From Pelagibacteraceae bacterium AG-337-I02 (lineage in GTDB: Bacteria; Pseudomonadota; Alphaproteobacteria; HIMB59; GCA-002718135), in NCBI GenBank assembly GCA_003282155.1, contig QBZY01000001.1, positions 18,917-82,916 on the forward strand: a DNA stretch of 64,000 nucleotides, in the 5' to 3' direction. The stretch's first letter is position 1, and every line of letters begins with the position of its first letter. The notes beneath the pieces were generated by a model. It saw nothing but the letters and a program-made list of their open reading frames with translations, had not been told where the DNA came from and ran no database searches. Both the position numbers and the translations under genes were made by a program. This document shows positions 2,301 to 51,494 of the stretch, one piece after another.

Positions 2301-2303
2301 ATT

Positions 2304-3419: not shown

Positions 3420-3442
3420 ACCTAAGCATATGATAAAAAAAA

Positions 3443-36051: not shown

Positions 36052-36057
36052 TTTTCA

Positions 36058-37110: not shown

Positions 37111-37631
37111 TTAACTGCTCGATAAGAAAAAATAAAATCTTCCTGGATTTTAGTTTCAATAGCCCCTTTTCTTCTTGATCGCACTAGATCAATAGCTTCT
37201 TGTTTTTCATAATTGAATTCAACAAGTAAAATAGCTGCAATCGTTCCAGCTCTTCCTTTTCCTCCACGGCAATGTAAAACTAAATTTTTTCCATCTATCA
37301 ATTCGTTCTTTAATAAAACTTTGGTTGTCTCCCATTTATATTTAAAATCTTTATCTGGTGCTCCCATGTCATAGATAGGTAAGTGGTACCAATGTAATTT
37401 ATGTTCATAAATACTTTTGACAAATAAAGTTTTATCACACAATTTTTCAAATTCACTATCTTCAACAAAGGAAGTGATTGAGCTACAATTATTGTTTTTA
37501 AAAAGATTAAGTTCTTCATTAAAAATTGAAACTTCAAAGGTTCCTTCTTTGTTAAGTCCTGGAAAAGAAGTTAATATTATTTTTCCTGAAAAAGATTTTG
37601 ATTCAATAAAATCGTAATTGCTAAATTGCAT
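37107..37631 (-). CDS. Cys-based (CX5R) dual-specificity/PTP-like phosphatase
   Basis: 174 aa with the P-loop VLHCRGGKGRAGT. Its ATG directly abuts the phnZ-like stop. Confidence 0.7.
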   Translation of the reverse strand: MQFSNYDFIESKSFSGKIILTSFPGLNKEGTFEVSIFNEELNLFKNNNCSSITSFVEDSEFEKLCDKTLFVKSIYEHKLHWYHLPIYDMGAPDKDFKYKWETTKVLLKNELIDGKNLVLHCRGGKGRAGTIAAILLVEFNYEKQEAIDLVRSRRKGAIETKIQEDFIFSYRAVN

Positions 37632-38201
37632 TTAAGACTGATTAGCTAAAAAAGACTTTCTTGCTTCTTCTAAATAAGGACGAAAATGCTCAACATCAGG
37701 TGTTTTTTTATCTAAAATTTTAGCTAAATCATCAAATCGTCTTAACTCTACAGCCTCATCCATTAACGGTTTGCTAATAAACTCATCTGCTTCATCTTTT
37801 GTGAAGGGGCCACCTTGGACTTTTAGAGAAAGTTTTGAAGCTTCGGATAAACTTTCGTAATACCCTTCTTCAACACTAGATAAATATCTTTTTGAATCAA
37901 CATGTGCCCTAATTGGTAAAATAACATCTTCGCCAAAATATTTTTTTAAGAAATCTGCACCTAAATTTTCATGATGACCATCTTTACCTTCATGAATAGG
38001 ATCGCCATCTTCGTAAATGAGATGTCCAACATCATGAAGTAAAGCTGCAGCAATTGTGGAGCCGGGTAATTTATTTTGTTCCGCTAATTCAGCACACTGA
38101 AGAGCATGTTCTAATTGTGTCACATCCTCATTGCCATACTGAATATCCGCACCTTTAGTTTTTAAAAGATCTAACAAATAATCTACGATATTTTCTTTCA
38201 T
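37632..38201 (-). CDS. phnZ: HD-domain phosphonate-degradation oxygenase, PhnZ/TmpB family
   Basis: 189 aa. Ligand pattern LEHALQ, LLHDVGH, HHENLGA and RAHVDSKRYL, plus the C-terminal LQGGPF...ELRRFDDLAK signature of phosphonate-operon HD proteins. Confidence 0.8.
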   Translation of the reverse strand: MKENIVDYLLDLLKTKGADIQYGNEDVTQLEHALQCAELAEQNKLPGSTIAAALLHDVGHLIYEDGDPIHEGKDGHHENLGADFLKKYFGEDVILPIRAHVDSKRYLSSVEEGYYESLSEASKLSLKVQGGPFTKDEADEFISKPLMDEAVELRRFDDLAKILDKKTPDVEHFRPYLEEARKSFLANQS

Positions 38202-38296: not shown

Positions 38297-39394
38297 ATGG
38301 ATAAAAAATTACTTACCCCAGGTCCTTTAACAACCTCTATGACTACAAAAGAAGCCATGCTTCATGACTGGGGTTCAAGAGATAAAAAATTTATTGATCT
38401 TAACTCATCTATAAGAGAGTCACTGGTAAAATTAATAGATGGTGAAGATAATTATCAATGTGTACCGATGCAAGGTAGTGGAACATTTGCCGTTGAGTCA
38501 ATGGTCAGCTCACTTACTTCTAAAGATTCTAAAATACTAATCCTTATTAATGGTGCGTATGGACAACGAATGAAAAAAATGTGCACTTACCTAAATAGAG
38601 ATTTTATAGAGTATGAAGTTGCTGAACATGAAGTTCACGAATTAAGTAAAATTGAAAAATTAATTGATACGAATGATTTAACTCATATTTTCGCCGTATA
38701 TTGTGAGACAACTTCAGGTATTTTAAATCCCATTGAAGAAATTGCAGATTTAGCAGAGTCAAAAAAAATCTCTTTATTTATAGATGCTATGAGTGCTTTT
38801 GGGGCTTTGCCTCTTAGCGCAAAAAAAGTAACCTTTGACGCCGTTGCTGCTTCTTCAAATAAATGTTTAGAGGGTGTTCCAGGCGTTGGTTTTATTTTAG
38901 TAAAAAATGATGTTATTCAAAATGCAGAAGGAAATAGTCATTCGTTAAGTCTTGATTTGTATGATCAATGGCAGGCAATGGAAAAAAATAAACAATGGCG
39001 ATTTACACCCCCTACCCATGTATTAGCGGCTTTTAATCAAGCTATAAAAGAACACGAAAAAGAAGGAGGGGTTCAAGGAAGACATGCACGATATAAAAAA
39101 AATTGTGAGATTATATGTGCTGGGATGAAAGAATTGGGTTTTGAACAACTACTTCCAGATAATTTACAAGCACCTATAATTATTACTTTTAAGCAGCCAA
39201 ATGATTCGAATTTTAATTTTGATAAATTTTATAATGCCTTGAGTGACAAAGATTTTTTAATTTATCCAGGTAAATTAACGGTAGCGGAAACCTTTAGAAT
39301 TGGTTGTATTGGTAATTTAAATGAAAATGATATGCATAATACTTTAGGAGCTGTTAAAGAAGTAATTCAAGAATTAGCACTCAAAATAAATTAA
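38297..39394 (+). CDS. phnW: 2-aminoethylphosphonate:pyruvate aminotransferase
   Basis: 365 aa. The LLTPGPLTTS N-terminus and PLP-lysine block ASSNKCLEGVPG are typical of PhnW. Confidence 0.87.
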   Translation: MDKKLLTPGPLTTSMTTKEAMLHDWGSRDKKFIDLNSSIRESLVKLIDGEDNYQCVPMQGSGTFAVESMVSSLTSKDSKILILINGAYGQRMKKMCTYLNRDFIEYEVAEHEVHELSKIEKLIDTNDLTHIFAVYCETTSGILNPIEEIADLAESKKISLFIDAMSAFGALPLSAKKVTFDAVAASSNKCLEGVPGVGFILVKNDVIQNAEGNSHSLSLDLYDQWQAMEKNKQWRFTPPTHVLAAFNQAIKEHEKEGGVQGRHARYKKNCEIICAGMKELGFEQLLPDNLQAPIIITFKQPNDSNFNFDKFYNALSDKDFLIYPGKLTVAETFRIGCIGNLNENDMHNTLGAVKEVIQELALKIN

Positions 39395-39398
39395 TTTA

Positions 39399-40031
39399 AT
39401 GACACAAGAAATAGAAATTCCATTAATTCAAGCGACCAATGAAAATCTTCAAGGATATGGTTATCTTATTGATTCATTTGAAAAAAGTGAAATAGAAATT
39501 GTTACATGGCCAAAACAAGGTTGGAGAGAAATTGAAGAGGGGACAGGAAATGAAGGCGGAACAACAGAAGGTTCTTTTGATACGTGGTGGCAAGGAGATA
39601 CTCTTTATGGACAAAATAATGCGGTAGAACATAAAAGTGATTACGAAATTGATGGGAAATATATTCTTGGATATTCCACTAATCCTGACAATGAATTACA
39701 GAAACAAAACTACACTCATCCAGATAAAATTTATTTATGGCATGCCAACTATCATCCAGATGGTGGTCAACTTTTTTTTCCTAAAGAAAACAAGCCTTTT
39801 ATCTGTCCATTAGCATTACCAACTGATGATATAAAATTAGAAAATTTTAAAGCATTTTACTGTGATGGTTCTAAGGGTCTTTATATCCATCCAAACATAT
39901 GGCACGAAGGTGTTTTCCCAGTCTCTGAAAAGCAATCTTTTGACGGAAAACAAGGAAAAGTTCATGCAAGAGTAAGCATTGATTTAAAAGAAGAGTTTAA
40001 TAAATATATCTATTTTAAAACTCAAATTTAA
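39399..40031 (+). CDS. AllA (ureidoglycolate lyase)-family cupin protein of unknown function
   Basis: IPLIQATNENLQGYGYLI, YHPDGGQLFFP and YIHPNIWHEGVFP align with the AllA N-terminal, ERHPxxxQxFxP and HxxxWH blocks. About 50 aa longer than AllA. 4 nt after phnW. Confidence 0.6.
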   Translation: MTQEIEIPLIQATNENLQGYGYLIDSFEKSEIEIVTWPKQGWREIEEGTGNEGGTTEGSFDTWWQGDTLYGQNNAVEHKSDYEIDGKYILGYSTNPDNELQKQNYTHPDKIYLWHANYHPDGGQLFFPKENKPFICPLALPTDDIKLENFKAFYCDGSKGLYIHPNIWHEGVFPVSEKQSFDGKQGKVHARVSIDLKEEFNKYIYFKTQI

Positions 40032-40053: not shown

Positions 40054-40848
40054 ATGAAAATTATTCATTTATCTGATCCACATATTTATACTGATAAAAT
40101 ACATAGTATCGATCCAGTAGATAGATTTAAAAAAGCATTAGATCATATTATAATAAATCATAGCGATGCTGACCTTTTTGCAATTACAGGAGATATTACT
40201 GATCTAGGAGATAAAGAATCATATCAATTATTTATAGAGATAATTAAAGAAAAAAAATTACCTCAAAAATTAAAACCTCAACTTATTATTGGTAACCATG
40301 ACAACCGAGAGGAATTTAAAATTAACTTCCCTTCAGTGGAAACAGATAACAATGGTTTTGTTCAATATTTTATCGACAGAGAGGATAAGAGATTTATTTT
40401 TATCGATACAAATTTAATCAATACACATGCAGGTCATTATTGTGAGGATAGACAAGAATGGTTCACAAAAATATTAAATGAAACATCCAAAAATAAAAAT
40501 ATTTATGTTTTTATGCATCATAATCCTCTTGCTTTGGTAAAGGATGAAAGTGATGGGATAGGGTTAAAACAAAAAGAAGAGTTTAAAAAAATTATATTTA
40601 GTAATAAAGAAAAAATTAAGCATATTTTCTTTGGCCATCAACATATTACAAGTTCTGGTTCATATGGTGGTATTACTTTTTCGTCTCCAAGAAGTACTTG
40701 GTCTCCTCTGATACCTAACTTTTCAAATGAATATCGTTTAGGAACAGCTAACACAGATACAAATTATAATGTTGCAATAATTCGATCAGATGCTTTAGTT
40801 ATTCATACAGAAGATTTTTTAAAAACAGAAGTTAATTGGTTTAAATAA
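40054..40848 (+). CDS. Calcineurin-like metallophosphoesterase (GpdQ/CpdA-type phosphodiesterase)
   Basis: Motifs LSDPH, GDITDLGD, GNHDN, MHHNP and GHQH. 264 aa. Confidence 0.75.
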   Translation: MKIIHLSDPHIYTDKIHSIDPVDRFKKALDHIIINHSDADLFAITGDITDLGDKESYQLFIEIIKEKKLPQKLKPQLIIGNHDNREEFKINFPSVETDNNGFVQYFIDREDKRFIFIDTNLINTHAGHYCEDRQEWFTKILNETSKNKNIYVFMHHNPLALVKDESDGIGLKQKEEFKKIIFSNKEKIKHIFFGHQHITSSGSYGGITFSSPRSTWSPLIPNFSNEYRLGTANTDTNYNVAIIRSDALVIHTEDFLKTEVNWFK

Positions 40849-40851
40849 AAA

Positions 40852-41958
40852 TTATTTTTTTTCGATGACAAATATTTCATTGTTAAAATAAAGACCTTTA
40901 TTTTTAGCAACAATTTTTTGAACTACTTTTTCGTAATTTTTTGTTTTTTCTACCTTCATAACTTTATCATCATCCATTTGATTAACATATATGGAAGCAT
41001 TCCAAGCAGAAAAAATTAAGGATGTCGCTATACCTCCACTGATTTCTGTTGGTAGAGCTCTCAGTTTGCATTTAATAATTCTTTTTTCTCCAAAAGATAA
41101 AGTGCTTAATAAATCTTTATCTAAATTTTTCTTAAGATAAGAAATGATACTATTTCCAAGAGAAGGAAATGGGTCTTCTTTTGGCCAAATTTTACGAATT
41201 ATTTCATTAGCAGGATCTTTTCCTGAAGCATGAATAGTTAATAATTTCCCTTTTGATTTAAGCGCTCTAATCATTGGTTCAATGACATATTTTGATTTCT
41301 TTTCTGCTGAAATTCTTGAACGATAAGGCTGTGAAGCAATAATAAGATCAAATTTATTATCTGATTTTTTTTTGGTAGGGATTAATTCATTAACATTAAA
41401 TTCTTGATCTTCGCGGTAGATAACCATGACTGAAGGCTCTTTATAAGTATGATTACCTGACTTTTTATTAATTTCTATATTCCATTTTTTTTCTAAAAAT
41501 TCATTTTGTTTTCTTAATTGTTGGGCAAATTCAAGAGAGGTCTCACCTTTTAATTTAATAATATTCCAATTAATTTTTTTCTGTTTAACTTCATTTTTTG
41601 ATTTTAGATTTGCGGCTTCCGCGTAGTGTAAATTTGAAATGACAAAAACAGTATTCTTATGCTCAACGAACCTATCGGGTAATTTTTCTAAACCTAATCT
41701 TACATCTTCTATGCTTATTTCTTTTGTGCAAACTAATAGAGGTACGTTAGGCCTAGCCTCGTGGCACTGACGCATTACATTCATAAGTAAAGAACCATCC
41801 CCCATACCAGCATCAAATATTTTTAAACCAGGTTTTTGAGGTTTAATTTTATTTACATGAGGACGTATCGCATCGGCAATTTGATTTTTTTCATTTGTTG
41901 TAGTTACAAATAATAAATATTTTTGTCTGTTATCATAAAACCTGAAATTTTTTTTCAT
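40852..41958 (-). CDS. Methyltransferase-like protein with a large insertion (unassigned family)
   Basis: 368 aa. SAM motif-I-like IFDAGMGDGS (aa ~47-56). FDLIIASQPY (aa ~203-212) resembles the (D/N/S)PPY motif IV of amino-group methyltransferases but lies about 145 aa away rather than the usual ~60-70. Confidence 0.4.
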   Translation of the reverse strand: MKKNFRFYDNRQKYLLFVTTTNEKNQIADAIRPHVNKIKPQKPGLKIFDAGMGDGSLLMNVMRQCHEARPNVPLLVCTKEISIEDVRLGLEKLPDRFVEHKNTVFVISNLHYAEAANLKSKNEVKQKKINWNIIKLKGETSLEFAQQLRKQNEFLEKKWNIEINKKSGNHTYKEPSVMVIYREDQEFNVNELIPTKKKSDNKFDLIIASQPYRSRISAEKKSKYVIEPMIRALKSKGKLLTIHASGKDPANEIIRKIWPKEDPFPSLGNSIISYLKKNLDKDLLSTLSFGEKRIIKCKLRALPTEISGGIATSLIFSAWNASIYVNQMDDDKVMKVEKTKNYEKVVQKIVAKNKGLYFNNEIFVIEKK

Positions 41959-41960
41959 TA

Positions 41961-43073
41961 CTAATAAAGTCCCATTGATTTAGCAGAAGAGATGAAGGCT
42001 TCTTTATTGCCAATAAAGTTTTTACCTCGTTCCCCTAAAAACGCATCATCTACTATATTATTCCATTCTTGAACAGGAACTTTTATTTCATTTAAGTTAA
42101 GAGGAACCTCTAAAGAACGCATAAATTCACTCAGATGATTTGCGGCATTCTCTAGGTTATCGTTAAAAATTAATTTTAGTCTTTCTTCAGCTACACTATC
42201 AATTCCAACCATACTTTTAGTAATCATCGGTAAAGTAAATGAACAAGCAATACCATGCTGAATACCGTAATTGAGTGTCACAGGGTATGATAGATTGTGC
42301 GCAATAGCAGTTTTCGTATTGGAAAACGCTAAGCCAGCATGAACGCACGCCAATGCAATGTTTGAGCGTAATACAACATTTCTTAAATCTTTAGTGAGAA
42401 GTGGTAAATTTTCTAATACTAATTTTGATGCTTGTATTGCATGAGAGGCAGAAATTGGGTTCGCATTAATATTCCAAATACTTTCCATCGAATGGGAGAG
42501 AGCATCTAAACCAGTTGAAATGGTTAAGCCTAAAGGCTTATCAACCATAATAGATGGATCGATAATTGCTTTTTCTGCATAAAGAGATTTATGAGCCAAA
42601 GATAATTTATTGTTTTTTTCTTTATCCCAAATTGTGGCCCAACACGTAAGCTCACTCGATGTTCCTGAAGTTGTAGGTATTGCAATCATCTTGATTGGAT
42701 TTTCGACTCTTGGACTTTTCTTATTGCGAACGAAATCTGTTAGATATTCTTGTTTATCTTTAAATGCAGCAATTGCTTTAGCTGTGTCTGTAACAGAGCC
42801 ACCACCTATAGCTAAAATATAATCTACCGATTCATTCATTGAAGAAAATTTTTTTTGTAGCTCTAAAATATCCTTATAATCTGGATTAGGCTGAACATCC
42901 GTCATAATGGATAAGGGTGGATTTGAAGAAGATTTTAATTCATCGCTATATTTTTTAAAAATTTCTTCTGGATGAGTGATAATGATATAGTTCTTATTTT
43001 TAAGTGCATCATGTACTTCTTTAAATCTATTTTCTCCAAAGATAATTTCAACAGGGTTAAAATAGTTCCACAT
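41961..43073 (-). CDS. Iron-containing alcohol dehydrogenase, possibly phosphonoacetaldehyde reductase / 2-hydroxyethylphosphonate dehydrogenase-like
   Basis: 370 aa. GGGSVTDTAKAIA nucleotide motif and His-rich metal site (DALSHSMES, AIAHNLSYP, HGIACS). The family call is firm; the substrate is inferred from context. Confidence 0.75.
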   Translation of the reverse strand: MWNYFNPVEIIFGENRFKEVHDALKNKNYIIITHPEEIFKKYSDELKSSSNPPLSIMTDVQPNPDYKDILELQKKFSSMNESVDYILAIGGGSVTDTAKAIAAFKDKQEYLTDFVRNKKSPRVENPIKMIAIPTTSGTSSELTCWATIWDKEKNNKLSLAHKSLYAEKAIIDPSIMVDKPLGLTISTGLDALSHSMESIWNINANPISASHAIQASKLVLENLPLLTKDLRNVVLRSNIALACVHAGLAFSNTKTAIAHNLSYPVTLNYGIQHGIACSFTLPMITKSMVGIDSVAEERLKLIFNDNLENAANHLSEFMRSLEVPLNLNEIKVPVQEWNNIVDDAFLGERGKNFIGNKEAFISSAKSMGLY

Positions 43074-43077
43074 TACA

Positions 43078-44157
43078 TTAAATTGATTTTGCCGCTTTAG
43101 TTAAAATTGTCATTTTCTCAATTGCTTGTTCTCGCGTAAAGAAACCTAAACCACAATCTGGTGCAGCTATTAAACGGTGTTCATCAATATGTTCAAGTGA
43201 ATCTTTGATACGAACTCTTACTTCTTCAACAGTCTCCATTCTACTTTTTGCAATATCAATAAATCCAAAAATTACTTTTGTTTTAGTAAATTTTTCTAAA
43301 AGATTTAAATCATTATGCCTATGTGAATCTTCTAAAGATACTTCATCAATAGTTGAATCATCTACAAGTGAGGCAATTCTATCATAAGCATCTAGATCAG
43401 CCTTTTTATACCCTTCTGAATCTAATGAGTTAGGATAACCGCAACAAATATGGCAAACGCGTTGCACTTCTTTAGGTATACCATGCATCATTCTTTCTAA
43501 ATTTTCCATACCGTAAGAATGAGCTTCATCGGGCTTTCTAGCGAATACTGGTTCATCAATTTGAATATACTGACAGCCTGCATCTACAAGTGCTTTAACT
43601 TCTTTATTAAGTGCTAATGCTAAATCAAAACCAAGTTTTTTCATGTCATCATAGTAATTGTTGGCAATTGAATCTGTAATTGTCATTGGTCCAGGTAGCG
43701 TAATTTTAACTGGGTTTTTTGTAAATTGTTGTGCACTCTTCCAGTCTAAATGCATGCGTATTTCTTTACTTGAAATTGGTGCAACAATAGTTGGAAGATC
43801 AGCTTCAAACGCACCTTGTCTTACTGACTTATGTGTAACTTCTTTAAAACTCACTCCATTTAAAAAACGACATTGATATAATACGTAACTCTCACGTCTA
43901 ACTTCTCCATCTGTTGGAACATCAATTCCTGCATTTACTTGATCAGTTATAACTTCTTTAATTGCTGCTAAAAATAATTTTTCAGCATCCGCACCCGCAG
44001 ACTCTAACGCTTTTTCATATGCCCCAGGTGACCAATTTGATAATAACCCTTTTGAAGCTTTTCTCTCTTCTTCTGATTTTGTCCCTAAAAACCAATCTTG
44101 AATCGGCGTGTGTTTTGGTTTTGGATATGCACCTATAGTAGTAGTTGTAAGAGGCAT
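43078..44157 (-). CDS. MetE-like (cobalamin-independent methionine synthase catalytic-domain family) Zn-dependent alkyl/methyl transferase
   Basis: 359 aa single barrel. Zn ligand blocks CHICCGYP (HxC), VSLEDSH (E) and APDCGLGF (C). AGGAG Shine-Dalgarno 8 nt upstream. Confidence 0.72.
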   Translation of the reverse strand: MPLTTTTIGAYPKPKHTPIQDWFLGTKSEEERKASKGLLSNWSPGAYEKALESAGADAEKLFLAAIKEVITDQVNAGIDVPTDGEVRRESYVLYQCRFLNGVSFKEVTHKSVRQGAFEADLPTIVAPISSKEIRMHLDWKSAQQFTKNPVKITLPGPMTITDSIANNYYDDMKKLGFDLALALNKEVKALVDAGCQYIQIDEPVFARKPDEAHSYGMENLERMMHGIPKEVQRVCHICCGYPNSLDSEGYKKADLDAYDRIASLVDDSTIDEVSLEDSHRHNDLNLLEKFTKTKVIFGFIDIAKSRMETVEEVRVRIKDSLEHIDEHRLIAAPDCGLGFFTREQAIEKMTILTKAAKSI

Positions 44158-44187
44158 GACTTATTCTCCTGAATATCTTAAAATAAA

Positions 44188-44212
44188 ACAGCGGCTTTTA
44201 TAAAGCCGCTGT
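44188..44212 (-). terminator. Intra-operon intrinsic terminator / mRNA-stabilising hairpin after the binding-protein gene
   Basis: The minus strand reads ACAGCGGCTTT-ATA-AAAGCCGCTGT (11-bp perfect stem) followed by TTTATTTT. Starts 27 nt after the SBP stop. Confidence 0.65.
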
Positions 44213-44239
44213 AGTAAAAAGTTAACAATAAAGTAATCT

Positions 44240-45493
44240 CTATAAAAGATCCTCTATTTCTTCCATCATCTCTTCTTGAAGATCAGCCATATTATCTGCA
44301 CTACCTGTAGCAATTTCTTCAGTGTAATCATAGATTACCTGAGTTATTGCTAGACCGTTTTCACCAGGATATGCAAACCAATCAGCCAATAAAGGTAATT
44401 GATTTACAGCAGTTAGTTTGTTTGGATTTTTAGTATAAAAATCACCTAACAAATCATTGGCTGCTTTATTTGGTGGAACATATCCAGTAGTTTCAGCAAC
44501 TAAAGCTGCACCAATACCAGAAGTGATAAACTTTAAGAAAGTCCATGCAGCATCTACTCTTGCTGGATCATCAGATGTAGAAACTAACATCGCAGCATTT
44601 CCACCCGCTGGAAGTCTTGCTGGAGTTCCTCCGTTTACACCTGGCATTCCTGGAAATGGTGCTGTTTTAAGTTCAAAATCTGCTTTGGCTGCATTCACTG
44701 AACCTAAGCTTGATGTTGACCAGAAAAACATACCAATAGTGCCTGCATTAAATGCAGCTTGACCATCAGCAATTGAATAGTTTGGCATATTACAACCACT
44801 CATTATGTCATGCATTTGTTGTAAAGTTGCTAGACCAGCATCTCCACCCATATTAACAGCTCCATCTTTTACCATTGGAACATTTTGAGTGTGCATTAAA
44901 GCTTGGTGAAACCAGTTACCTGTAATATTCCAGCCAAAATATAAAGTTCCTTTTCCAGCTGCTGCTAATTTATTACAAGCTGCGATAACTTCGTCCCAGT
45001 TGGTTGGGATGCTATCTATACCTGCTTCAGCTAATAGATCCATGTTATAGTATCCAACAGGTGTTGATACAGAAAATGGTAACCCATATACATCACCACC
45101 AAAGGTAGATAAACTTAACATAGCAGAGTGATAACCATCTTTTTCAAAATCAGCTTCTCCTGCAATAAAAGGCTCTAATGATTTTGCAATCCCTTTATCA
45201 ACAAGTGGTGCTTGTCTGTTAAGACCTTGCATTGTTACATCTGGTAAATTACCTGAAGTAGACTCTCTGAAGATTGTTGCAGTTGCATCCTCATAGTTTT
45301 CATAAGTTGCTCTAAATTTAACTTGAATATCTGGATGTGCTTTTTCAAACTCTGGCATAATAGCTTGAAACGTAACGTCAAATAATCCAGAATAAGGATA
45401 AGCTACTTCTATTTCAATAGACTTAGCTGAATTAACAGAACCATAAAAACCAAAAGCTAGTACGGCTGCCAATCCTGTAATTAATTTTTTCAT
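44240..45493 (-). CDS. ABC transporter periplasmic substrate-binding protein, family 1 (UgpB/sugar type), probable organophosphonate/organophosphate binder
   Basis: 417 aa with a signal peptide (AAVLAFGFYGSVNSA). GGGAGGA Shine-Dalgarno. Sits between phnY and the unassigned trio. Confidence 0.82.
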   Translation of the reverse strand: MKKLITGLAAVLAFGFYGSVNSAKSIEIEVAYPYSGLFDVTFQAIMPEFEKAHPDIQVKFRATYENYEDATATIFRESTSGNLPDVTMQGLNRQAPLVDKGIAKSLEPFIAGEADFEKDGYHSAMLSLSTFGGDVYGLPFSVSTPVGYYNMDLLAEAGIDSIPTNWDEVIAACNKLAAAGKGTLYFGWNITGNWFHQALMHTQNVPMVKDGAVNMGGDAGLATLQQMHDIMSGCNMPNYSIADGQAAFNAGTIGMFFWSTSSLGSVNAAKADFELKTAPFPGMPGVNGGTPARLPAGGNAAMLVSTSDDPARVDAAWTFLKFITSGIGAALVAETTGYVPPNKAANDLLGDFYTKNPNKLTAVNQLPLLADWFAYPGENGLAITQVIYDYTEEIATGSADNMADLQEEMMEEIEDLL

Positions 45494-45629: not shown

Positions 45630-47072
45630 TTACCAAGGTAGCGAAAAGGTTTTTACATTAGTAAAACTTTTCATTGCTTCAATAACACCCTCTTTGTAAC
45701 CAAGACCTGAGTCTTTAATTCCTCCAAAAGGAGACATTTCAATTCTGTAGCCTGGAACCTCCCAAATATTTACCGTACCAACATTTAAACCTTGAATATA
45801 TTTTTTTGCTCGCATGAAGTTGTTTGTACATACTCCAGATGATAATCCGAATGCGGTTGAATTAGATATTTTCATTACAGCTTCATCGTCATTAGGCACA
45901 CGAATAATTGGGATAACTGGACCAAATGTTTCTTCTAAAACTAATTCACTTTTAGGATCAACATGATCTATAACTATTGGGGGTAACAAAGCGCCCTTTC
46001 TTCCAGGGTGATATAAAATTTTTGCACCATCTTCTTCAGCCATAGAAACTCTTTTATCAAAAAGTTCTGCAGCTTGAGCATTAACAACAGTACCTAAGTC
46101 TGTTTCCATATTCATAGGATCACCAAATTTAATTTTCTTAGCACGCTCAAGAGCCATCTCAACAAATTGATCTGCAATAGATTCTTGAACCAGTATTCTT
46201 TTAACAGCTGTACAACGTTGGCCAGAGTTTTTCGTTGCGCCAGTAACAGCTAGCTCAACAGCTTTTTTAAGATCATCACCATCTAAGTCATTTAAAACAA
46301 TTAATGGATCATTACCACCAAGCTCTAGAACTGTTCTTTTGTATCCAGCTTGTTCAGCAATTAATTTTCCTACACCTACACTGCCTGTAAAAGTAATGAG
46401 ATCAATATTTGGATTCTTAATCATTTCAGATCCAATATCTTGAGGCCATCCAGTTACAACTGAAAACATTTCTGGTGGTAAACCTGCTTCATATAAAACA
46501 TCAGCGAGTACCATTGCTGTTAAAGGTGTTAATTCTGTTTGTTTACATACAGTACAATTATTTGTTGCAATTGAAGGCGCAATTTTATGCGCTACCATAT
46601 TTAAAGGATGATTAAATGGAGTGATTGCTGAGATTGCTGTTAAAGGTTCTCTTATGGTAAATATTTTTCTCGCTTTTCCATGCGGGGTTAAATCACAAGA
46701 AAATATTTCACCATCATCATGAATACAAAGTTGTGCCGTTAACGAAAATACATCAAAAGCTCTTCCTACTTCGTATAAAGAATCTTGTTTTGAGATACCA
46801 AGCTCTAAAGTAATAATATCAGAAATTTCATCTTTTCTTTTAACAAGTACTTCTGCAGCAGTTTGAAGAATTTTTTGTCTCTCATATCTTGTAAGCTTAG
46901 GTTGGTAATTTGCAGCAATATCTAAAGCCTTTCTTGCATGCTCTGCAGTACCGGCTGGGACCGTTCCGATTACTTCACCTGTAAATGGGTACTCAACATT
47001 TATTGTTTTATCTGAAGTAACTTTTTCTCCAGCTATACGCATTGCTTCATTAATCATTTTTTTGTGCATCAT
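45630..47072 (-). CDS. phnY: Phosphonoacetaldehyde dehydrogenase (aldehyde dehydrogenase family)
   Basis: 480 aa ALDH with catalytic blocks ELGGNDP and [13 protein letters not shown] overlap with phnA upstream, the phnA-phnY pairing of the Sinorhizobium-type pathway. Confidence 0.78.
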
Positions 47073-48310
47073 AGGGCTCCATTAATTGCATAATAAAATG
47101 CATCATAGTTATATAATTGTTTGCTAGTATCTAAGTTTTGTAATTTTACATTTGATATGAATGGCACTTCTCTTTCATGGAGTCCACCATGAGAACGTAA
47201 AGGTTCATTTAATCCAGAAAGATTGTGTTTATCTTCAGATGAACCAATAGTCATAAATTCTGAAGACATACATATAATATCCCCCATTCTATCTGGAGGT
47301 AAATTATAAGTAGAGCATCCTTCGTCTTTTGTTAAAACAACTTCTATATCTTTTATTTCTTTAATAGTATTTACAACTGAATCTACCTTGCTCTTGTCTT
47401 CTAAATAAATTGTTGCAAAAGAACCAAGTGAACCATGATGAACGACATATGGATCTGTAATTGGTAGTATGACTTTAGCCATGTTTGGTTCAAATTTTTT
47501 ATCTAAATAATCTTGTAAAAATATTGCATTAGGTGAACCGTCTTCTTTTGATTTTGGTTTCATACCGTGATCTGCTGTAATGATTATAGAAACATTCTCC
47601 TTATTTAAAAGACCAATGTATTTATCAAACATTGCATAAAATTTATTTGCTGTTTCATTTCCCGGTGCATATTTGTGTTGAATATAATCCGTAGTCGATA
47701 AATACATAATATTTGGTTTAAACTCTTCAAGAAGTTTTACACCTGCAGCCATTACAAATTCAGAGAGTCCTTCAGAATATACTTCTGGCACTGGCATCCC
47801 CAACCAATTGTTTACATTATCTATACCATTGAGATCTTTTGTTGCTTGATCAGATTTTTCAGCAGAAAAACAAATAGCTCTCTCATTATCAAAACTTAAT
47901 CCGTTTCCTAAAAGTGTTCTCAACTTGTCTTTTGCAGTAACAAGCGCAATTTTTGAACCGGAATTGTAAAATTTTTCAAAAATAGTTGGTGCTCGCATAT
48001 ATTTTGGGTCATTCATCATTACTTCTTCACCAGTCTCAGGTGTATAAAAGAAGTTTCCGCATATACCGTGAACAGAACTTGGTTGGCCTGTTACAATGGA
48101 AATGTTATTTGGATTTGTAAAACTTGGAATAGCGCTGTGAACAAGTAGGTTTTCACCACTTGCAATTAATTTATCAAGATTTGGTGTAAGGTTAGATTTT
48201 GATGCTTCGTCGAGATACTCTTTTTGACTACCATCAAGGCATATAACAATAGCAGTTTTTGAGAAAGAGCTTGGATATTCTCTTTTATTAATTTCTAAAT
48301 TACCGGACAC
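47069..48310 (-). CDS. phnA: Phosphonoacetate hydrolase (alkaline-phosphatase superfamily)
   Basis: 413 aa. Metal/nucleophile blocks [15 protein letters not shown] and ITADHGM are characteristic of PhnA / nucleotide-pyrophosphatase-type enzymes. Confidence 0.83.
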
Positions 48311-48399
48311 GACTTCAACTGATATATATCATTAAAAATAAGAATTTATAGTTATCTGCTAGTTAAACTCAATCATAATTTGAATATTTGTTAATAAAA

Positions 48400-48417
48400 T
48401 TGAAATAAAACTGAAAT
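48400..48417 (+). promoter_or_regulatory. Pho-box-like repeat TTGAAAT-AAAA-CTGAAAT
   Basis: 7+4+7 architecture in the forward orientation, about 70 nt upstream of the ABC ATPase GTG. A further TTG lies one turn (12 nt) upstream. Confidence 0.4.
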
Positions 48418-48489
48418 AATTAGATTTATAATATTCTCAAATTTAATAAAATTTTGTAGATTAAATATAATTATAAGGGGGGAGATTAA

Positions 48490-49629
48490 GTGGGCACAAT
48501 ATCACTTAAAAATATTTCAAAGTCATTTGGATCTACGCAAGTATTAAACAATTTAAATGTTGATATACAAGATGGCGAATTTTTAACATTAGTTGGTCCA
48601 TCTGGTTGTGGTAAATCTACGTTACTTCGAATCATTGCAGGATTAGAACAACAAACTTCAGGCGATGTATTAATTGATAATAAGAATGTAAATAAAATTA
48701 GAGCCAGCGAGCGAGATCTTGCAATGGTATTTCAATCATACGCTTTATATCCACATTTAACGGTACGAAGAAATTTAGAAACACCTCTAAGACTGAGAGA
48801 TTATAATGCTTTTGAACGCCTTCCTTTGATAGGGAATTTTTCTCCAAACAAAAAAAGTAAAACTGAGTCTATCAATCAATTAGTTAATAAAACATCTGAA
48901 ACACTTCAGATTTCTGAACTACTGGATAGAAAACCAGGACAATTATCGGGAGGCCAAAGACAAAGAGTAGCTCTTGGTCGCGCAATGGTAAGAGAACCTG
49001 TTGCATTCTTAATGGATGAACCGCTATCAAATTTAGATGCTGCTCTAAGAGTGCATATGCGATCCGAATTATCAGAACTTCATAATTCACTTAAAACAAC
49101 ATTTGTTTATGTAACGCATGATCAAGCAGAAGCATTGACAATGTCTTCTCGTATGGCGGTAATGATTGATGGAAATTTATTACAACTAGATACACCTCAA
49201 GAAGTTTATGATAATCCTTCATCATTAAGTGTTGCTCAATTTGTTGGTAGTCCTAAAATAAATATTTTTAATGGATCTTCAGATTCTAGTGGAACTGTTA
49301 ATTTTTTAAATGTTAACCTGAAAAGAAAAAGTTCTGAAAGTAATTCAGATTTACACATAGGAATTCGACCAGAACATTTAGAAATTACTAATAATAAAGA
49401 TGAAAACACATTTAGTGGCACTGTTGCTTACAGAGAAAATTTAGGATCAGATATATACTTCCATGTTAATATAGAAGACAACTCAAAAAAAATAATTGTA
49501 AGAGGCTTACCTCAATTTACACATCAAATTACAAATGGTTCAAGTGTAAATATCAAGAGAGATTCAAATAAAGCATTGTTATTTAATCAAACAGGGATGA
49601 GGATTCATTTTAATAATGCAATGGGATAA
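48490..49629 (+). CDS. ABC transporter ATP-binding protein, UgpC/MalK type with a C-terminal regulatory domain
   Basis: 379 aa. Walker A GPSGCGKST, signature LSGGQRQRVALGRA, Walker B FLMDEPLSNLD. GTG start behind GGGGGGAG. Confidence 0.93.
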   Translation: MGTISLKNISKSFGSTQVLNNLNVDIQDGEFLTLVGPSGCGKSTLLRIIAGLEQQTSGDVLIDNKNVNKIRASERDLAMVFQSYALYPHLTVRRNLETPLRLRDYNAFERLPLIGNFSPNKKSKTESINQLVNKTSETLQISELLDRKPGQLSGGQRQRVALGRAMVREPVAFLMDEPLSNLDAALRVHMRSELSELHNSLKTTFVYVTHDQAEALTMSSRMAVMIDGNLLQLDTPQEVYDNPSSLSVAQFVGSPKINIFNGSSDSSGTVNFLNVNLKRKSSESNSDLHIGIRPEHLEITNNKDENTFSGTVAYRENLGSDIYFHVNIEDNSKKIIVRGLPQFTHQITNGSSVNIKRDSNKALLFNQTGMRIHFNNAMG

Positions 49630-49644
49630 GGATAACATTTACTA

Positions 49645-50601
49645 ATGCATAATTCAAAAGCGCATCTATGGTTTATTGCCCCTGCAATAATACTCATGAT
49701 AATTATTTTAATCTTTCCTCTTTTTCTTGCAGGTGGAATTTCCTTTACTGATTATAATCTAGGCAACAAAACATTCGAATGGATTGGGTTAGAGAACTAT
49801 GACAAAATGTTTAACCGAAAAACTTATGTGAAAATGATTTGGGCGACAGCCACGTATGTAATTGTTGTGGTGCCTATTTCAGTTATACTTGGTTTATGTG
49901 CAGCGATGCTCTTAAATTCTCTACGATTTGGTGCTGACATATATAAAACTATTTTCTTTCTTCCAGTTATGGCGACGCTTCTGGCAATGGCTATTGCTTG
50001 GGAATTCACTCTTCACCCAACTCTTGGGATAGTAAATAATTTTTTAGCTAATGGTTGTGGTGGTGCAAGAGAATTTATTTTTGGTTTTCATTGGTTGCCA
50101 TGGGTAGACTCAGAACAAAGTTGGTATGCAGTGGCGTGTGCAAATAATATGGACTTTCCTTATTGGTTAAAACAAAAAAATACTGCCATTTGGACTGTGT
50201 GTTTTATTGGAATATGGCAAGCCTTTGGTTTCAATATGGTTTTATATTTAGCCGGATTAACAGGTATACCAAGAGAATTATACCAAGCTGCAGAAATGGA
50301 TGGGGCTAAATCAACATGGGAACAATTTAAACTTGTGACATGGCCAATGCTTGGTCCAACAACTTTATTTGTTGTAACCATAACGACTATTAGAACCTTT
50401 CAAGTTTTTGATACAATTGAAATACTCACAAAAGGTGGTCCATCTAAAACAACCTACGTTATGATGTATGCAATTTTTGAAAAAGCTATTCAACAAAATT
50501 TAACAAGTATTGGTGCGGCTATCACAGTTGTCTTCATTGGCTTTATATTGATATTAACTTTCTTCCAAAGATATATCATTGAGAAAAGGGTTCATTATTG
50601 A
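49645..50601 (+). CDS. ABC transporter permease (UgpA/MalF-like)
   Basis: 318 aa, 6 TM, EAA loop YQAAEMDGAKSTWEQFKLVTWPML. Confidence 0.9.
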   Translation: MHNSKAHLWFIAPAIILMIIILIFPLFLAGGISFTDYNLGNKTFEWIGLENYDKMFNRKTYVKMIWATATYVIVVVPISVILGLCAAMLLNSLRFGADIYKTIFFLPVMATLLAMAIAWEFTLHPTLGIVNNFLANGCGGAREFIFGFHWLPWVDSEQSWYAVACANNMDFPYWLKQKNTAIWTVCFIGIWQAFGFNMVLYLAGLTGIPRELYQAAEMDGAKSTWEQFKLVTWPMLGPTTLFVVTITTIRTFQVFDTIEILTKGGPSKTTYVMMYAIFEKAIQQNLTSIGAAITVVFIGFILILTFFQRYIIEKRVHY

Positions 50602-51494
50602 TGGAAGCTAAACAGTATATTGGAGAAGGTTGGAAACATGCAATATTAATTGTTGGTGCAATTGTTGTGTTGTTACCTTTTTATATGATGGTTTCAATGT
50701 CATTAAAATCGCAACAAGAAATTCAATCTATTTCTGGAGGTTTAATTGGTGCACAAGAAACTCAGACATTTCCCGTATGTGTAAAAACTGGATACTCAGA
50801 AGAAGAATGCACAATGAAACCATATAAATATAACTATTGGTTTGCTTTCGAAAAGGCTCCTATTCCAAGATACTTGATGAATGGTGTTATTGTTACTTTA
50901 TCAATTTTTATTATTCAGGTTCTTGTTGCCTTACCGTGTGCCTACGCACTGGCCAAACTTAGATTTTATGGACGAGAATTTGTTTTCTCGATGGTTCTAT
51001 TTTGTTTACTCATTCCAGTGCATGGAATAGCACTTCCACTTTATGTCATGCTTGCCCAGGCAGGTTTGGTCGATACCTATTCTGCCTTAATACTCCCCTG
51101 GACAATATCGGTGTTTGGAATTTTTCTAATGCGGCAATTTTTTATGACAGTCCCAGATGAATTAATTGACGCCGCCAGGATGGATGGAATGGGAGAGTAT
51201 GCAATTGTCTGGAAGGTGATGCTTCCGACTGCAATCCCGGCGTTACTTGCCTTTGCTATTTTCTCAGTAGTTGCACACTGGAATGATTATTTCTGGCCTC
51301 GAATGGTAATTACTGGAAATAGAGATCTCTTTACACCACCTCTTGGTATCAGAGAATTTAGAGGGGGAATTGATAGTGATGAGTTTGGTCCAATGATGGC
51401 TTCAATTGTTACAGTTACAGTGCCTCTCATTGTTGCTTTTATAATTGCACAAAAAAGATTTATTGAAGGAATTACTTTAACAGGAATGAAGTAA
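50598..51494 (+). CDS. ABC transporter permease (UgpE/MalG-like)
   Basis: 298 aa, EAA loop IDAARMDGMGEYAIVWKVMLP. 4-nt overlap with the preceding permease gene. Confidence 0.9.
   Translation: MMEAKQYIGEGWKHAILIVGAIVVLLPFYMMVSMSLKSQQEIQSISGGLIGAQETQTFPVCVKTGYSEEECTMKPYKYNYWFAFEKAPIPRYLMNGVIVTLSIFIIQVLVALPCAYALAKLRFYGREFVFSMVLFCLLIPVHGIALPLYVMLAQAGLVDTYSALILPWTISVFGIFLMRQFFMTVPDELIDAARMDGMGEYAIVWKVMLPTAIPALLAFAIFSVVAHWNDYFWPRMVITGNRDLFTPPLGIREFRGGIDSDEFGPMMASIVTVTVPLIVAFIIAQKRFIEGITLTGMK

Follow-up and report, generated by a model that had tools for sequence, protein, structure and literature searches.

A MetE-like protein and its own ABC importer recur next to phosphonate genes across several unrelated marine bacteria

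What do a MetE-like gene, an alcohol dehydrogenase gene and a gene outside all named families contribute at the end of a phnA-phnY operon? The question is raised by a stretch of 64,000 nucleotides (the window) from Pelagibacteraceae bacterium AG-337-I02, a SAR11-type genome with a G+C content of ~30%. The gene run closes the phnA-phnY operon of a phosphorus-scavenging island and consists of genes for a binding protein, a MetE-like protein, an iron-type alcohol dehydrogenase (ADH) and a 368-aa protein, here called X368. The features of the locus are as follows.

37632-38201, minus strand: PhnZ-like HD oxygenase, phosphonate set
38297-39394, plus strand: PhnW, phosphonate set
39399-40031, plus strand: ureidoglycolate-lyase-like cupin, phosphonate set
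40054..40848, plus strand: metallophosphoesterase, SpdA/GpdQ-like phosphodiesterase, convergent with X368
40852..41958, minus strand: X368, ORF
41961..43073, minus strand: ADH, 370 aa ORF (Fe-ADH and ADH_Fe_C)
43078..44157, minus strand: MetE-like protein, 359 aa ORF (Meth_synt_2)
44188..44212, minus strand: terminator/attenuator-like hairpin and T-run between the binding-protein and MetE-like genes
44240..45493, minus strand: binding protein, 417 aa ORF (SBP_bac_1)
45630..47072, minus strand: PhnY, phosphonoacetaldehyde dehydrogenase (TIGR03250, 798 bits, cutoff 636)
47069..48310, minus strand: PhnA, phosphonoacetate hydrolase (TIGR02335, 467 bits, cutoff 408)
48390..48422, no strand: three TGAAATAA-like repeats in 11-nt phase, candidate Pho box, in the divergent phnA/ABC promoter region
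48490..51494, plus strand: UgpC-like ABC ATPase (UgpC model, 391 bits, cutoff 432) and two permeases (UgpA/UgpE-like)

The ORF reading bears out the original prediction of four minus-strand genes in series with these coordinates and with gaps of 82 nt (binding protein/MetE-like), 4 nt (MetE-like/ADH) and 2 nt (ADH/X368). The motifs quoted for the MetE-like protein (CHICCGYP, SLEDSH, APDCGLGF), the ADH (GGGSVTDTAKA) and X368 (IFDAGMGDGS, FDLIIASQPY) are present in the translations, and PhnY and PhnA upstream are both above their NCBIfam cutoffs. The order stands, but transcription in series has to be qualified because the 82-nt gap holds a GC-rich hairpin with an 11-bp stem and, after it, a T-run (44212-44188, minus strand); the three distal genes are thus probably expressed by attenuated read-through. 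Comparable hairpins are found at the equivalent position in three related loci (L121, L093 and L087).

The three phased Pho-box-like repeats were also located: TGAAATAAAAC TGAAATAA is exact at 48401-48419 and a degenerate third copy starts at 48390, with a period of 11 nt. Close relatives keep the repeat; it is degenerate in L019 and differs in L121. Loose matches to it across the window are at chance level (12 found, 11.2 expected). It resembles a Pho box and is a candidate PhoB site. The PhnZ-like HD protein falls under the cutoffs of both PhnZ (202 bits, cutoff 214.6) and TmpB (159 bits, cutoff 300), and genes of the PhnZ/PhnW/cupin set accompany MetE-like relatives in L107, L111 and L120.

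The ADH is probably a group III iron-type, NAD-dependent dehydrogenase of 2-hydroxyethylphosphonate (HEP) in the PhpC/TIGR03405 clade, feeding PhnY and PhnA. TIGR03405 is its top NCBIfam family with 362 bits, about 200 bits ahead of the runner-up (161), although this is under the equivalog cutoff of 423.7 bits, a point against the PhpC assignment. Residues D190, H194, H259 and H273 align with the PhpC metal ligands, and K156, T255, Y263 and R349 correspond to the PhpC clamp Lys157, Thr256, Tyr264 and Arg349 and are conserved in relatives. The gene lies 3' of phnA-phnY in many SAR11 variants, and the order PhnA-PhnY-ADH persists in variants that lack the MetE-like gene (L001, L004, L017). The ADH would oxidise HEP with NAD+ to phosphonoacetaldehyde, which PhnY and PhnA would then convert to acetate and phosphate, as the original prediction proposed; family and residues were read here, and the activity would be that of characterised homologues. 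In one source a cluster member is labelled 'phosphonate metabolism-associated iron-containing alcohol dehydrogenase'. The HEP reading is no longer new because the role beside phnY-phnA was proposed by Lockwood 2022 and oxidation of HEP by phnY-phnA-linked PhpC homologues was demonstrated in vitro by Piazza et al. 2026 (PMC13576164). None of the described phosphonate pathways contains the MetE-like protein.

From its domain and active site, the MetE-like protein is assigned to an uncharacterised 'core' family of single-barrel zinc thiol (homocysteine) methyltransferases. The domain search gave Meth_synt_2 (E 1e-34) and no significant match to Meth_synt_1. The nearest relative is MesD, a folate-independent 'core' methionine synthase (Price et al. 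2021; PDB 3RPD), against which the protein scores 155 bits; membership in MesD itself was rejected (NF006589, 196 bits, cutoff 392). Comparison with 3RPD shows that Glu85, Asp201, His236/Cys238, Tyr241, Glu276 and Cys335 are kept; the zinc ligands and the residues binding the homocysteine amino group are conserved. Ala10 stands where MetE has its serine for binding the carboxylate of homocysteine, which is a point against this function. The AF2 model (pLDDT 86.3) matches 3RPD in Foldseek with TM 0.83/0.87.

The binding protein is a predicted periplasmic protein of the SBP_bac_1 type (CUT1/UgpB-like), with only 66 bits against the UgpB model (cutoff 411) and at most 69 bits against the best solved relatives. 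It was rejected as a PhnD, PhnS or AepX type; AepX and PhnS belong to pfam13343. A small zwitterion would be an unusual ligand for a sugar/glycerol-phosphate type of binding protein, a point against the methyl donor proposed below. The ATPase and the two permeases are its membrane partners.

SAR11 variants have either all of the genes for the binding protein, the MetE-like protein and the three ABC components or none of them. The five genes are found together in L087, L088, L090, L092-L098, L106 and L121. Many of the compared loci, here and for X368 below, come from closely related genomes, so that counts of loci overstate the number of independent events. The MetE-like proteins of these units are 53-71% identical to that of the window and the permeases at most 74%, with 85-87% in the SAR11-like L121; ABC homologues in units of other bacteria are 53-74% identical. 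The five genes, of which those for the ATPase and the permeases are divergent from the other two, thus form one transferable unit.

Phosphonate genes recur around this unit. PhnA and PhnY directly adjoin it in four lineages; both are near it in L094 and L121, and PhnA in L105. Its neighbours in other marine bacteria include PhpC-like or PbfG-like dehydrogenases, and zinc-dependent ADHs with the phosphonate-associated TIGR03366 as top match are found in L090, L092, L098 and L105. Phosphodiesterases lie near the unit in L088, L099 and L102, and in these three loci and L125 a member of the metallophosphoesterase family of the window separates the MetE-like gene from that of the binding protein. 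Other MetE-like relatives have in their neighbourhood a TIGR03405 ADH together with a binding protein of the PhnD type (L085), or the cupin and a PhnZ-like gene (L120). In the clade that shares at least 57% identity with the window protein, the neighbourhood comparison agrees with the prediction, the genes being found beside phosphonate genes and a dedicated importer and not mainly in methionine or one-carbon loci.

No Pfam or NCBIfam family matches X368 above threshold (Methyltransf_31 is sub-threshold only), in agreement with the prediction that it fits no named family. The AF2 model (pLDDT 91.4) has the class I SAM-methyltransferase fold expected from its motifs, with histamine N-methyltransferase 1jqd as the top Foldseek match (E 1e-10, TM 0.49/0.61, identity 14%). 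A large insert separates motif I (DAGMGDG) from the post-beta4 SQPY motif, and both motifs are conserved across the family. X368 is probably a SAM-type methyltransferase acting on an amino group.

Outside the island the gene is found near MetY, Fhs, MetK, AhcY, non-canonical MTHFR and core MetE-like genes. It adjoins MetY or Fhs in 18 of 23 SAR11 loci without phn genes, and among 37 distant loci it adjoins non-canonical MTHFR in 12, MetE-like genes in 13, MetK in seven and AhcY in seven. MetE-like genes of three subfamilies stand directly beside it or in the same operon (L115, L061/L063, L078, L093/L095). In L001 a PF02574 homocysteine S-methyltransferase gene is directly downstream of X368; the window has no gene at this position and carries the MetE-like gene upstream of the ADH instead. 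X368 is a methionine/one-carbon-cycle gene of a hypothetical-protein family and is not phosphonate-specific, contrary to the original prediction, its homologues being mainly in methionine and one-carbon loci. It belongs to the methionine/SAM/one-carbon cycle and recurs beside homocysteine-methylating barrels of several families.

The explanation we tentatively prefer, at a little under an even chance, is that the run is a mosaic of an HEP dehydrogenase, an importer with its MetE-like enzyme and a methyl-cycle gene, X368. The zinc-activated thiolate of the MetE-like enzyme, most likely that of homocysteine, would accept the methyl group of an activated donor, which would yield methionine. The donor is most likely the compound imported by this ABC system or a product of it. 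Among the candidates we favour a quaternary-amine phosphonate, for example N,N,N-trimethyl-aminoethylphosphonate (trimethyl-AEP), either free or in the form of a glycerol diester to be cleaved by the neighbouring phosphodiesterase. Equally plausible is glycine betaine freed from trimethyl-AEP by a TmpB-like HD oxygenase. With either donor, the enzyme would act like betaine-homocysteine methyltransferase without being its homologue.

Methyl transfer from N-methyl-AEPs to homocysteine has indirect support in the quaternary-amine and C2-sulfonate catabolic genes near MetE-like relatives. These encode an adjoining MttB-family quaternary-amine methyltransferase (L120), a BCCT transporter and an MtgC-like corrinoid fusion (L088), a GcvT/SoxA-like demethylase (L153), and Xsc and AckA (L147) of a taurine-type route, the sulfonate analogue of AEP catabolism. 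Trimethyl-AEP is frequent in nature and resists the known Pbf oxidases, and its sole known route yields glycine betaine. Points against the proposal are that no island enzyme is known to handle the dimethyl-AEP left by the first demethylation, and that a TmpA/PhnY*-type hydroxylase accompanying the PhnZ-like gene is absent at the island.

It is rather unlikely that the MetE-like protein is simply the methionine synthase of the host and X368 a methyl-cycle enzyme, neither acting on phosphonates and both in the island by accident or for co-regulation, for example if phosphate stress raises the demand for SAM. Such bystanders would fit the methionine/one-carbon contexts of X368 elsewhere, the MetK gene adjoining the MetE-like gene in L105, MetK and AhcY near it in L121, and the conserved amino-group residues, though not the alanine at the carboxylate-binding serine. 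MetE-like relatives with 45-55% identity are in unrelated housekeeping contexts, so the whole family may use a common cellular methyl donor. However, the MetE-like gene and the importer are gained and lost as one in SAR11 and stay tied in several unrelated lineages, and recurrence by PhnA/PhnY and phosphonate-type dehydrogenases of three folds makes accident hard to credit.

An improbable alternative is a glycerophosphocholine/choline route with a Ugp-like glycerophosphodiester importer, a GpdQ-like diesterase, oxidation of choline to glycine betaine by the ADH and an aldehyde dehydrogenase, and the MetE-like protein as betaine-homocysteine methyltransferase. The UgpC score of the ATPase and the best matches of the permeases and binding protein (UgpA, UgpE, UgpB) agree with it, as do the phosphodiesterases within the unit, BADH-like aldehyde dehydrogenases in L094, L098 and L105, and the BCCT, MtgC-like, MttB-like, GcvT-like and choline-sulfatase-like neighbours. 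The ADH, on the other hand, keeps the Lys/Arg/Tyr/Thr phosphonate clamp of the PhpC model, which a choline site would not need. The characterised PhpC and PbfG are highly specific for HEP, the zinc-dependent partners match a phosphonate-associated family best, and PhnA and PhnY flank the unit directly in four lineages.

That the three genes are a single co-inherited catabolic module, combining HEP oxidation with methyl addition to or removal from N-methyl-AEPs, is quite improbable. The tight packing (4 and 2 nt) and the identical gene order in many close relatives (L002-L016, L019, L108, L109, L111) suggest it, but the genes come and go independently, and wherever the MetE-like gene is present the binding protein and ABC genes accompany it. 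Within SAR11, ADH and X368 occur without the MetE-like gene in L001, L004 and L017, X368 without the other two in L018 and L020, and MetE-like gene and ADH without X368 in L107 and L121. X368 orthologues of other SAR11 clades and distant taxa are in methionine/one-carbon loci with no phn genes nearby.

Highly improbable is a reaction in which the thiolate attacks the methyl carbon of an O-methyl phosphonate or phosphate ester and removes the methyl group, freeing HEP or phosphate and making methionine: the chemistry is feasible for zinc thiolates, Ada performing a comparable attack on DNA methyl phosphotriesters, and would tie the MetE-like enzyme directly to HEP dehydrogenases and the PhoU/PiT neighbours in L087, but none of the natural methyl phosph(on)ate esters is known to be abundant in seawater and the quaternary-amine and sulfonate neighbours would stay unexplained.

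Among known systems, the ADH is closest to PhpC, an HEP dehydrogenase/phosphonoacetaldehyde reductase (EC 1.1.1.309; Piazza et al. 2026, PMC13576164), with the pf00465 fold, TIGR03405 as top family, matching metal- and HEP-binding positions and the association with phnY-phnA. It differs in the score below the equivalog cutoff, in the phnW of its cluster and in its two flanking methyl-transfer genes, which are unreported in PhpC clusters; the main text of that paper is without the terms 'methyltransferase', 'methionine synthase' and 'MetE'. MesD shares with the MetE-like protein the single barrel, the predicted fold, the zinc ligands, the amino-group-binding Glu and Asp and the MesD-type Tyr. 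The MetE-like protein is only 30% identical to it with half the family score, has alanine at the MetE serine position and lacks the MesX/DUF1852 partner; what stays with it instead is the ABC importer together with dehydrogenases and phosphonate genes.

For trimethyl-AEP there is the TmpA/TmpB route (Rajakovich 2019; summaries in PMC10574752 and PMC10590968), which likewise handles a quaternary AEP derivative and yields glycine betaine, a methyl donor for homocysteine, and the island has a PhnZ/TmpB-like HD oxygenase. The island lacks a TmpA-like 2-oxoglutarate dioxygenase, and its HD protein is under both family cutoffs. Betaine-homocysteine methyltransferase and MmuP/MmuM (S-methylmethionine permease and homocysteine methyltransferase) resemble the proposed combination of importer and zinc enzyme passing an onium methyl group to homocysteine, and a PF02574 enzyme follows X368 in L001; the MetE-like fold is PF01717, not PF02574, and the setting is phosphorus scavenging. 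X368 resembles histamine N-methyltransferase in having a substrate domain inserted into a class I fold, but identity is 13-14% and many homologues carry an extra N-terminal domain of ~100 aa. In the plant S-methylmethionine cycle a SAM-dependent methylase (Met S-methyltransferase, MMT) is coupled to an onium:homocysteine methyltransferase. X368 with a homocysteine-methylating barrel would resemble that cycle, a SAM-type methylase standing beside a homocysteine-methylating zinc barrel in many genomes, although X368 has no sequence relationship to MMT.

The ORF listing bears out four consecutive minus-strand genes separated by gaps of 82, 4 and 2 nt, and all peptide motifs quoted for them in the original prediction are found in the translations. 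These genes and their surroundings are listed below.

Genes of the window (coordinates, strand where noted, description)
1-4837, minus: gyrB (3' part), recF, dnaN and dnaA, from N-terminal translations
33221-35030: PlcP-like metallophosphoesterase and glycosyltransferase
35389-37110: PhoU-like and PiT genes, with the PlcP/glycosyltransferase pair just upstream
37107-37631, minus: dual-specificity/PTP-like phosphatase, 174 aa, directly after the PhnZ-like gene
37632-38201, minus: PhnZ/TmpB-like HD oxygenase
39399-40031, plus: ureidoglycolate-lyase-like cupin, 210 aa
40852-41958, minus: X368, a methyltransferase-like protein of 368 aa
41961-43073, minus: iron-type alcohol dehydrogenase (ADH)
43078-44157, minus: MetE-like protein
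44240-45493, minus: binding protein (SBP)
45630-48310, minus: phnY and phnA
48490-51494, plus: ABC genes (ATPase and two permeases)

PhnA and PhnY exceed their NCBIfam cutoffs (TIGR02335, 467 bits; TIGR03250, 798 bits), PhnW scored 511 bits in the Pfam/NCBIfam scan of the flanking genes, and the PhnZ-like oxygenase reaches 202 bits against a TIGR03276 cutoff of 214.6. In Pfam and NCBIfam the island also encodes the cupin, a SpdA/GpdQ-like metallophosphoesterase, a phn_DUF6 EamA protein and a divergent UgpC/A/E-like ABC transporter. The G+C content of the window is about 30%, and the closest loci come from Pelagibacterales single-cell genomes. The gyrB-recF-dnaN-dnaA series indicates that the window begins beside the replication origin region. 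By N-terminal sequences alone, the PlcP-like protein and the glycosyltransferase correspond to the SAR11 phosphate-stress lipid-remodelling pair; with this pair included, a phosphorus-stress island would span roughly 33-52 kb. The place of the 174-aa phosphatase after the PhnZ-like gene is conserved in related islands. Despite the PhnZ/TmpB-like oxygenase, the island genes scanned include no 2-oxoglutarate dioxygenase of the PhnY*/TmpA type. The cupin accompanies the PhnZ/TmpB-like oxygenase and PhnW in several lineages (also in loci L107, L111 and L120), and it might supply the absent 1-hydroxylation step or another step.

The genes had been placed behind three phased Pho-box-like repeats. 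The phased repeat TGAAATAAAAC TGAAATAA is indeed present in the intergenic region between phnA and the ABC genes, but the third copy, 5' of the pair, is degenerate. Across the window the loose pattern occurs only at chance frequency, with no excess; what is notable is only the exact tandem repeat of this putative element and its conservation in close relatives. An 11-bp hairpin followed by a T-run lies between the SBP gene and the MetE-like gene, and three other lineages carry similar hairpins at that position. Because the hairpin stands 5' of the MetE-like gene, the distal genes are probably expressed by attenuated read-through. Rfam models at gathering thresholds revealed no riboswitch or other RNA control element in the window or in the related SAR11 locus L001, including the 178-nt gap of the latter.

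With the window proteins as probes, 80 genome loci carrying X368 relatives and 80 metagenome loci carrying MetE-like relatives were compared. The SAR11-type islands among them occur in several forms.

Forms of the SAR11-type island (gene order)
Form 1 (window): ABC genes, then PhnA, PhnY, SBP, MetE-like, ADH, X368
Form 2 (L004, L017): EamA, then PhnA, PhnY, ADH, X368
Form 3 (L001): as form 2, followed by a PF02574 homocysteine S-methyltransferase
Form 4 (L018, L020): PhnA, PhnY, X368, with ADH absent
Form 5 (L107, L121): MetE-like and ADH, with X368 absent

The idea that the MetE-like protein, ADH and X368 constitute one module is not borne out, the three being separable in L001, L004, L017, L018, L020, L107 and L121. 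The genes for SBP, the MetE-like protein and the three ABC components, on the other hand, are always gained or lost together across the island forms. The L001 variant carries no MetE-like gene; its divergent PF02574 protein (L001:11318-12223) is encoded directly downstream of X368 after the 178-nt gap and scores 70-74 bits with MmuM-type models and 59 bits with BHMT, all under cutoff.

The ADH has the pf00465 iron-type fold (PF00465, E 2e-36; PF25137, E 2e-32), and its best family is TIGR03405 ('Phn_Fe-ADH / PsrA') with 362.3 bits against 161 bits for the runner-up, a lead of about 200 bits, although the equivalog cutoff is 423.7 bits. According to Piazza et al. (Protein Sci 2026, PMC13576164), the oxidation of 2-hydroxyethylphosphonate (HEP) to phosphonoacetaldehyde is catalysed by PhpC homologues encoded in degradative clusters beside phnY-phnA or phnX, and also by the unrelated zinc dehydrogenase PbfG; the role had earlier been suggested by Lockwood et al. 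2022. The metal ligands of PhpC are Asp191, His195, His260 and His274, and HEP is contacted by Lys157, Thr256, Tyr264 and Arg349, where Tyr264 is replaced by Phe in sulfoacetaldehyde reductases (PMC13576164). Mapped by motif spacing onto the published P. fungorum numbering rather than by direct alignment, the equivalents in the ADH are D190, H194, H259 and H273 for the metal and K156, T255, Y263 and R349 for the HEP clamp, and these residues are conserved in L001, L085 and L121. The neighbourhood, PhnA-PhnY, matches the degradative type of PhpC cluster (phnY-phnA or phnX, without pepM), and SAR11 variants without the MetE-like gene also keep the order PhnA-PhnY-ADH.

Fold, ligands, clamp and neighbourhood agree with the PhpC class, and only the score falls under the equivalog cutoff. 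The choline dehydrogenase role in a glycerophosphocholine route is disfavoured by the conserved phosphonate clamp. With good confidence, the ADH is predicted to oxidise HEP, probably with NAD. The proposal that it feeds phosphonoacetaldehyde from HEP to PhnY and PhnA is therefore well supported by best family, residues and gene order, yet, given the published work on PhpC, already known. The ADH is a further member of a recently characterised enzyme class and does no more than extend to SAR11 a pathway that was published in 2026.

PhnD belongs to PF12974 and PhnS/AepX to PF13343, whereas the SBP of the window matches SBP_bac_1 and SBP_bac_8 only, and its assignment as AepX, PhnS or PhnD is rejected on Pfam family. 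The ABC system is related to the Ugp importer of glycerol-3-phosphate and glycerophosphodiesters but misses all four cutoffs (UgpC 391/432, UgpB 66/411, UgpA 101/335, UgpE 130/297); judged by these model scores it is not orthologous to Ugp.

The MetE-like protein consists of one Meth_synt_2 barrel of 359 aa in Pfam. The N-terminal barrel of canonical MetE, which binds the folate tail (Meth_synt_1), is matched only below threshold (E 0.009). The best solved relative is 3RPD (155 bits, 30% identity), and the predicted structure (pLDDT 86) superimposes on it in Foldseek with a TM score of 0.83-0.87. Price et al. 2021 identified 3RPD as MesD, a core methionine synthase that works without folate and requires MesX (DUF1852) and oxygen; their threshold for MesD proteins was a BLASTp score of at least 390 bits to ACIAD3523. 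With NF006589, which is named only 'methionine synthase' and is assumed here to stand in for the MesD family, the MetE-like protein scores 196 bits against a cutoff of 392. No MesX/DUF1852 gene is found in the Pfam annotations of six genomic contexts of MetE-like genes, in the top 25 of 133 families in a census of 140 neighbours, or among the island genes scanned in the window. Membership of MesD is rejected on the score and on the lack of this partner in the contexts covered.

Among the MetE-like orthologues the zinc ligands His-x-Cys, Glu and Cys are invariant, as are the equivalents of Glu85 and Asp201, which hold the amino group of homocysteine, and of Tyr241, a Tyr of the MesD type. At the position of the MetE serine, nearly all members carry Ala10. 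The MetE-like enzyme probably methylates homocysteine. An epoxyalkane:CoM-transferase-like reading, prompted by a disulfide reductase in L082, was dropped because that enzyme proved to be a common glutathione reductase, with an SSADH-like aldehyde dehydrogenase adjoining it.

Orthologues 53-73% identical to the MetE-like protein are found in other marine bacteria. In most of them (L087, L092-L098, L106 and L121) the gene directly follows ATPase, permease, permease and SBP_bac_1 genes, and in L088 and L090 the ABC/SBP genes adjoin it in another order. Onium/N-methyl catabolism is a second theme among the neighbours, beside the phosphonate and phosphate genes. The neighbours were called with our own ORF rules, which are unreliable above 60% G+C; the calls were cleaned by third-position G+C, and some are possibly miscalled.

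Neighbours of MetE-like genes
L087: PhoU-PiT
L094, L121: PhnY and PhnA
L105: PhnA; MetK
L090, L092, L098, L105: Zn-ADH, best family TIGR03366 ('phosphonate catabolism associated alcohol dehydrogenase')
L085: TIGR03405 ADH and PhnD-type binding protein
L094: HIBADH-like dehydrogenase
L088, L099, L102: metallophosphoesterases
L120: PhnZ-like gene and cupin
L120 (onium/N-methyl): MttB-family methyltransferase
L088 (onium/N-methyl): BCCT transporter and MtgC-like corrinoid fusion
L153 (onium/N-methyl): GcvT/SoxA-like protein
L147 (onium/N-methyl): sulfoacetaldehyde acetyltransferase and acetate kinase
L094, L098, L105 (onium/N-methyl): BADH-like aldehyde dehydrogenases

The neighbouring Zn-ADHs have several active-site residues in common with PbfG but lack its four-cysteine structural site. 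In L147 (3392-12020) a MetE-like relative, a PotD/PhnT2-type ABC importer and acetate kinase lie on one strand, with Xsc (sulfoacetaldehyde acetyltransferase, 1028 bits) convergent to them; this layout hints that methylated sulfonates of the taurine type may be broken down in a parallel manner. Relatives 45-55% identical to the MetE-like protein have no conserved context in the locus comparison and the Pfam census of 140 flanking genes, so that census counts dilute rather than sharpen the signal of the clade with at least 57% identity. The MetE-like/importer unit is abundant, since clustering at 90% identity groups 700-1000 metagenomic members under each of its proteins, and it is annotated as ordinary methionine synthase.

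X368 could be placed by structure prediction only. In sequence searches Methyltransf_31 stays below its cutoff of 27 bits (20 bits), NCBIfam gives no match, and a profile run against PDB sequences yields no usable relative. The AF2 model (pLDDT 91.4) is a Rossmann-like seven-strand class I methyltransferase fold with 190 PDB matches at E ≤0.001, the best 50 of which are all methyltransferases or cyclopropane synthases; the nearest solved fold is histamine N-methyltransferase (E 1e-10, 13-14% identity). A50, G51 and G53 of motif I and the acidic E80 after beta-2 are nearly invariant, motif I being degraded in a few distant homologues. After strand 203-209, in which D204 is nearly invariant, the pattern [SV][QH][PA][YFW] resembles the (D/N/S)PP(Y/F/W) motif of amino-group methyltransferases by its location and, in part, by its residues, without being the canonical form.

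Relatives of X368 are very common, and the 4534 found are all hypothetical or unnamed. Four SAR11 clades, about 65-71% identical to each other, are divided equally between phosphonate islands and other sites, and in 23 SAR11 loci without phn genes X368 follows MetY (11 loci) or stands beside formate-THF ligase (7 loci). A further 37 distant loci come from Steroidobacteraceae, other Gammaproteobacteria, Tardiphaga, Betaproteobacteria, Rhodothermales and others. In 12 of these a non-canonical MTHFR-like protein of 300 aa (7xg9, 179 bits) is encoded immediately downstream; MetK and AhcY are neighbours in seven each, FolD and Fhs also occur, and PF01717 MetE-like genes of other subfamilies are near X368 in 13. 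X368 directly adjoins a MetE-like gene in L115, L061 and L063, is the first gene of an importer and MetE-like operon in L093 and L095, and forms an X368-MTHFR-MetE-like operon in L078, where the MetE is a YxjG-type core.

An operon of X368 homologue, 7xg9-like MTHFR, PfkB kinase, MetK, AhcY, FolD and Fhs is found in L047 (7563-15834, for example), L048, L055, L062, L066 and L078. The methyl cycle in such operons is complete but for methionine synthase, and this gap, together with the core MetE of L078, suggests that X368 partners core MetE-like barrels. On a metagenome contig of 67% G+C (L115:7929-11551) an X368 homologue lies 35 nt downstream of the MetE-like gene, and a second, divergent paralogue is on the opposite strand. 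Many distant homologues have an additional N-terminal domain of about 100 aa with the motif AESTFGRRAVNDGKxVxRLRxG (X368 family alignment A1), for example L078:7713-9116 and L093:390-1832. Neither Pfam nor NCBIfam recognises this domain, which might bind DNA or serve as a sensor; the long forms would then regulate the methyl-cycle operon.

X368 can hence not be upheld as a phosphonate-specific gene and is assigned to methionine/one-carbon metabolism: outside the phosphonate islands its homologues lie in methionine and one-carbon loci, the finding that the original prediction had itself named as speaking against this. On balance, X368 appears to act in the methyl cycle as a methyltransferase that depends on SAM and is probably N-directed. 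Its links to non-canonical MTHFR, MetK, AhcY and core MetE-like barrels suggest that methyl-group metabolism in bacteria has a component that was so far overlooked.

Gene content, families, conserved residues, modular inheritance and recurrent neighbourhoods are observed directly, whereas the reaction scheme for the MetE-like/importer unit is a proposal. A methylated onium phosphonate, most plausibly trimethyl-AEP (AEP, 2-aminoethylphosphonate) or its glycerol diester, would be imported, and the MetE-like enzyme would transfer a methyl group directly from this donor, or alternatively from glycine betaine freed from it, to homocysteine to give methionine. X368 may be the SAM-side partner. By such demethylation phosphorus scavenging would also yield methionine for a SAR11 cell that is sulfur- and methyl-hungry. 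Trimethyl-AEP suits this scheme in four respects: it is a frequent natural compound, it withstands the known Pbf oxidases, its sole known route yields glycine betaine, and the sulfonate neighbours in L147 mirror AEP chemistry. There are also gaps in that a TmpA-type hydroxylase is missing and a sugar-type binding protein is unexpected, and we know of no island enzyme that handles dimethyl-AEP. An imported onium tied to AEP-type phosphonates (trimethyl-AEP or its glycine betaine) is only a tentative choice of methyl donor. That the MetE-like clade of at least 57% identity, with its dedicated CUT1-type importer, constitutes an undescribed marine phosphonate branch in which an onium donor is demethylated onto homocysteine is less likely still.

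The original prediction held that no described phosphonate pathway contains these genes. This holds for the MetE-like/importer unit and X368, since no paper linking either type of gene to phosphonate catabolism was found in the phosphonate literature searched, but not for the ADH, whose role is already published. Overall, the locus is a variant of the hydrolytic phosphonate island; it offers two leads on function and does not demonstrate a new pathway. Much of the dissolved organic phosphorus in the sea consists of phosphonates, and no group of consumers is more abundant than SAR11. A homocysteine-dependent trimethyl-AEP demethylase would close the gap left by the Pbf oxidases and tie phosphorus acquisition to methionine supply; if true, the MetE-like enzyme would add a fifth functional class to the folate-independent 'core' methionine synthases, one that draws its methyl donor from the environment.
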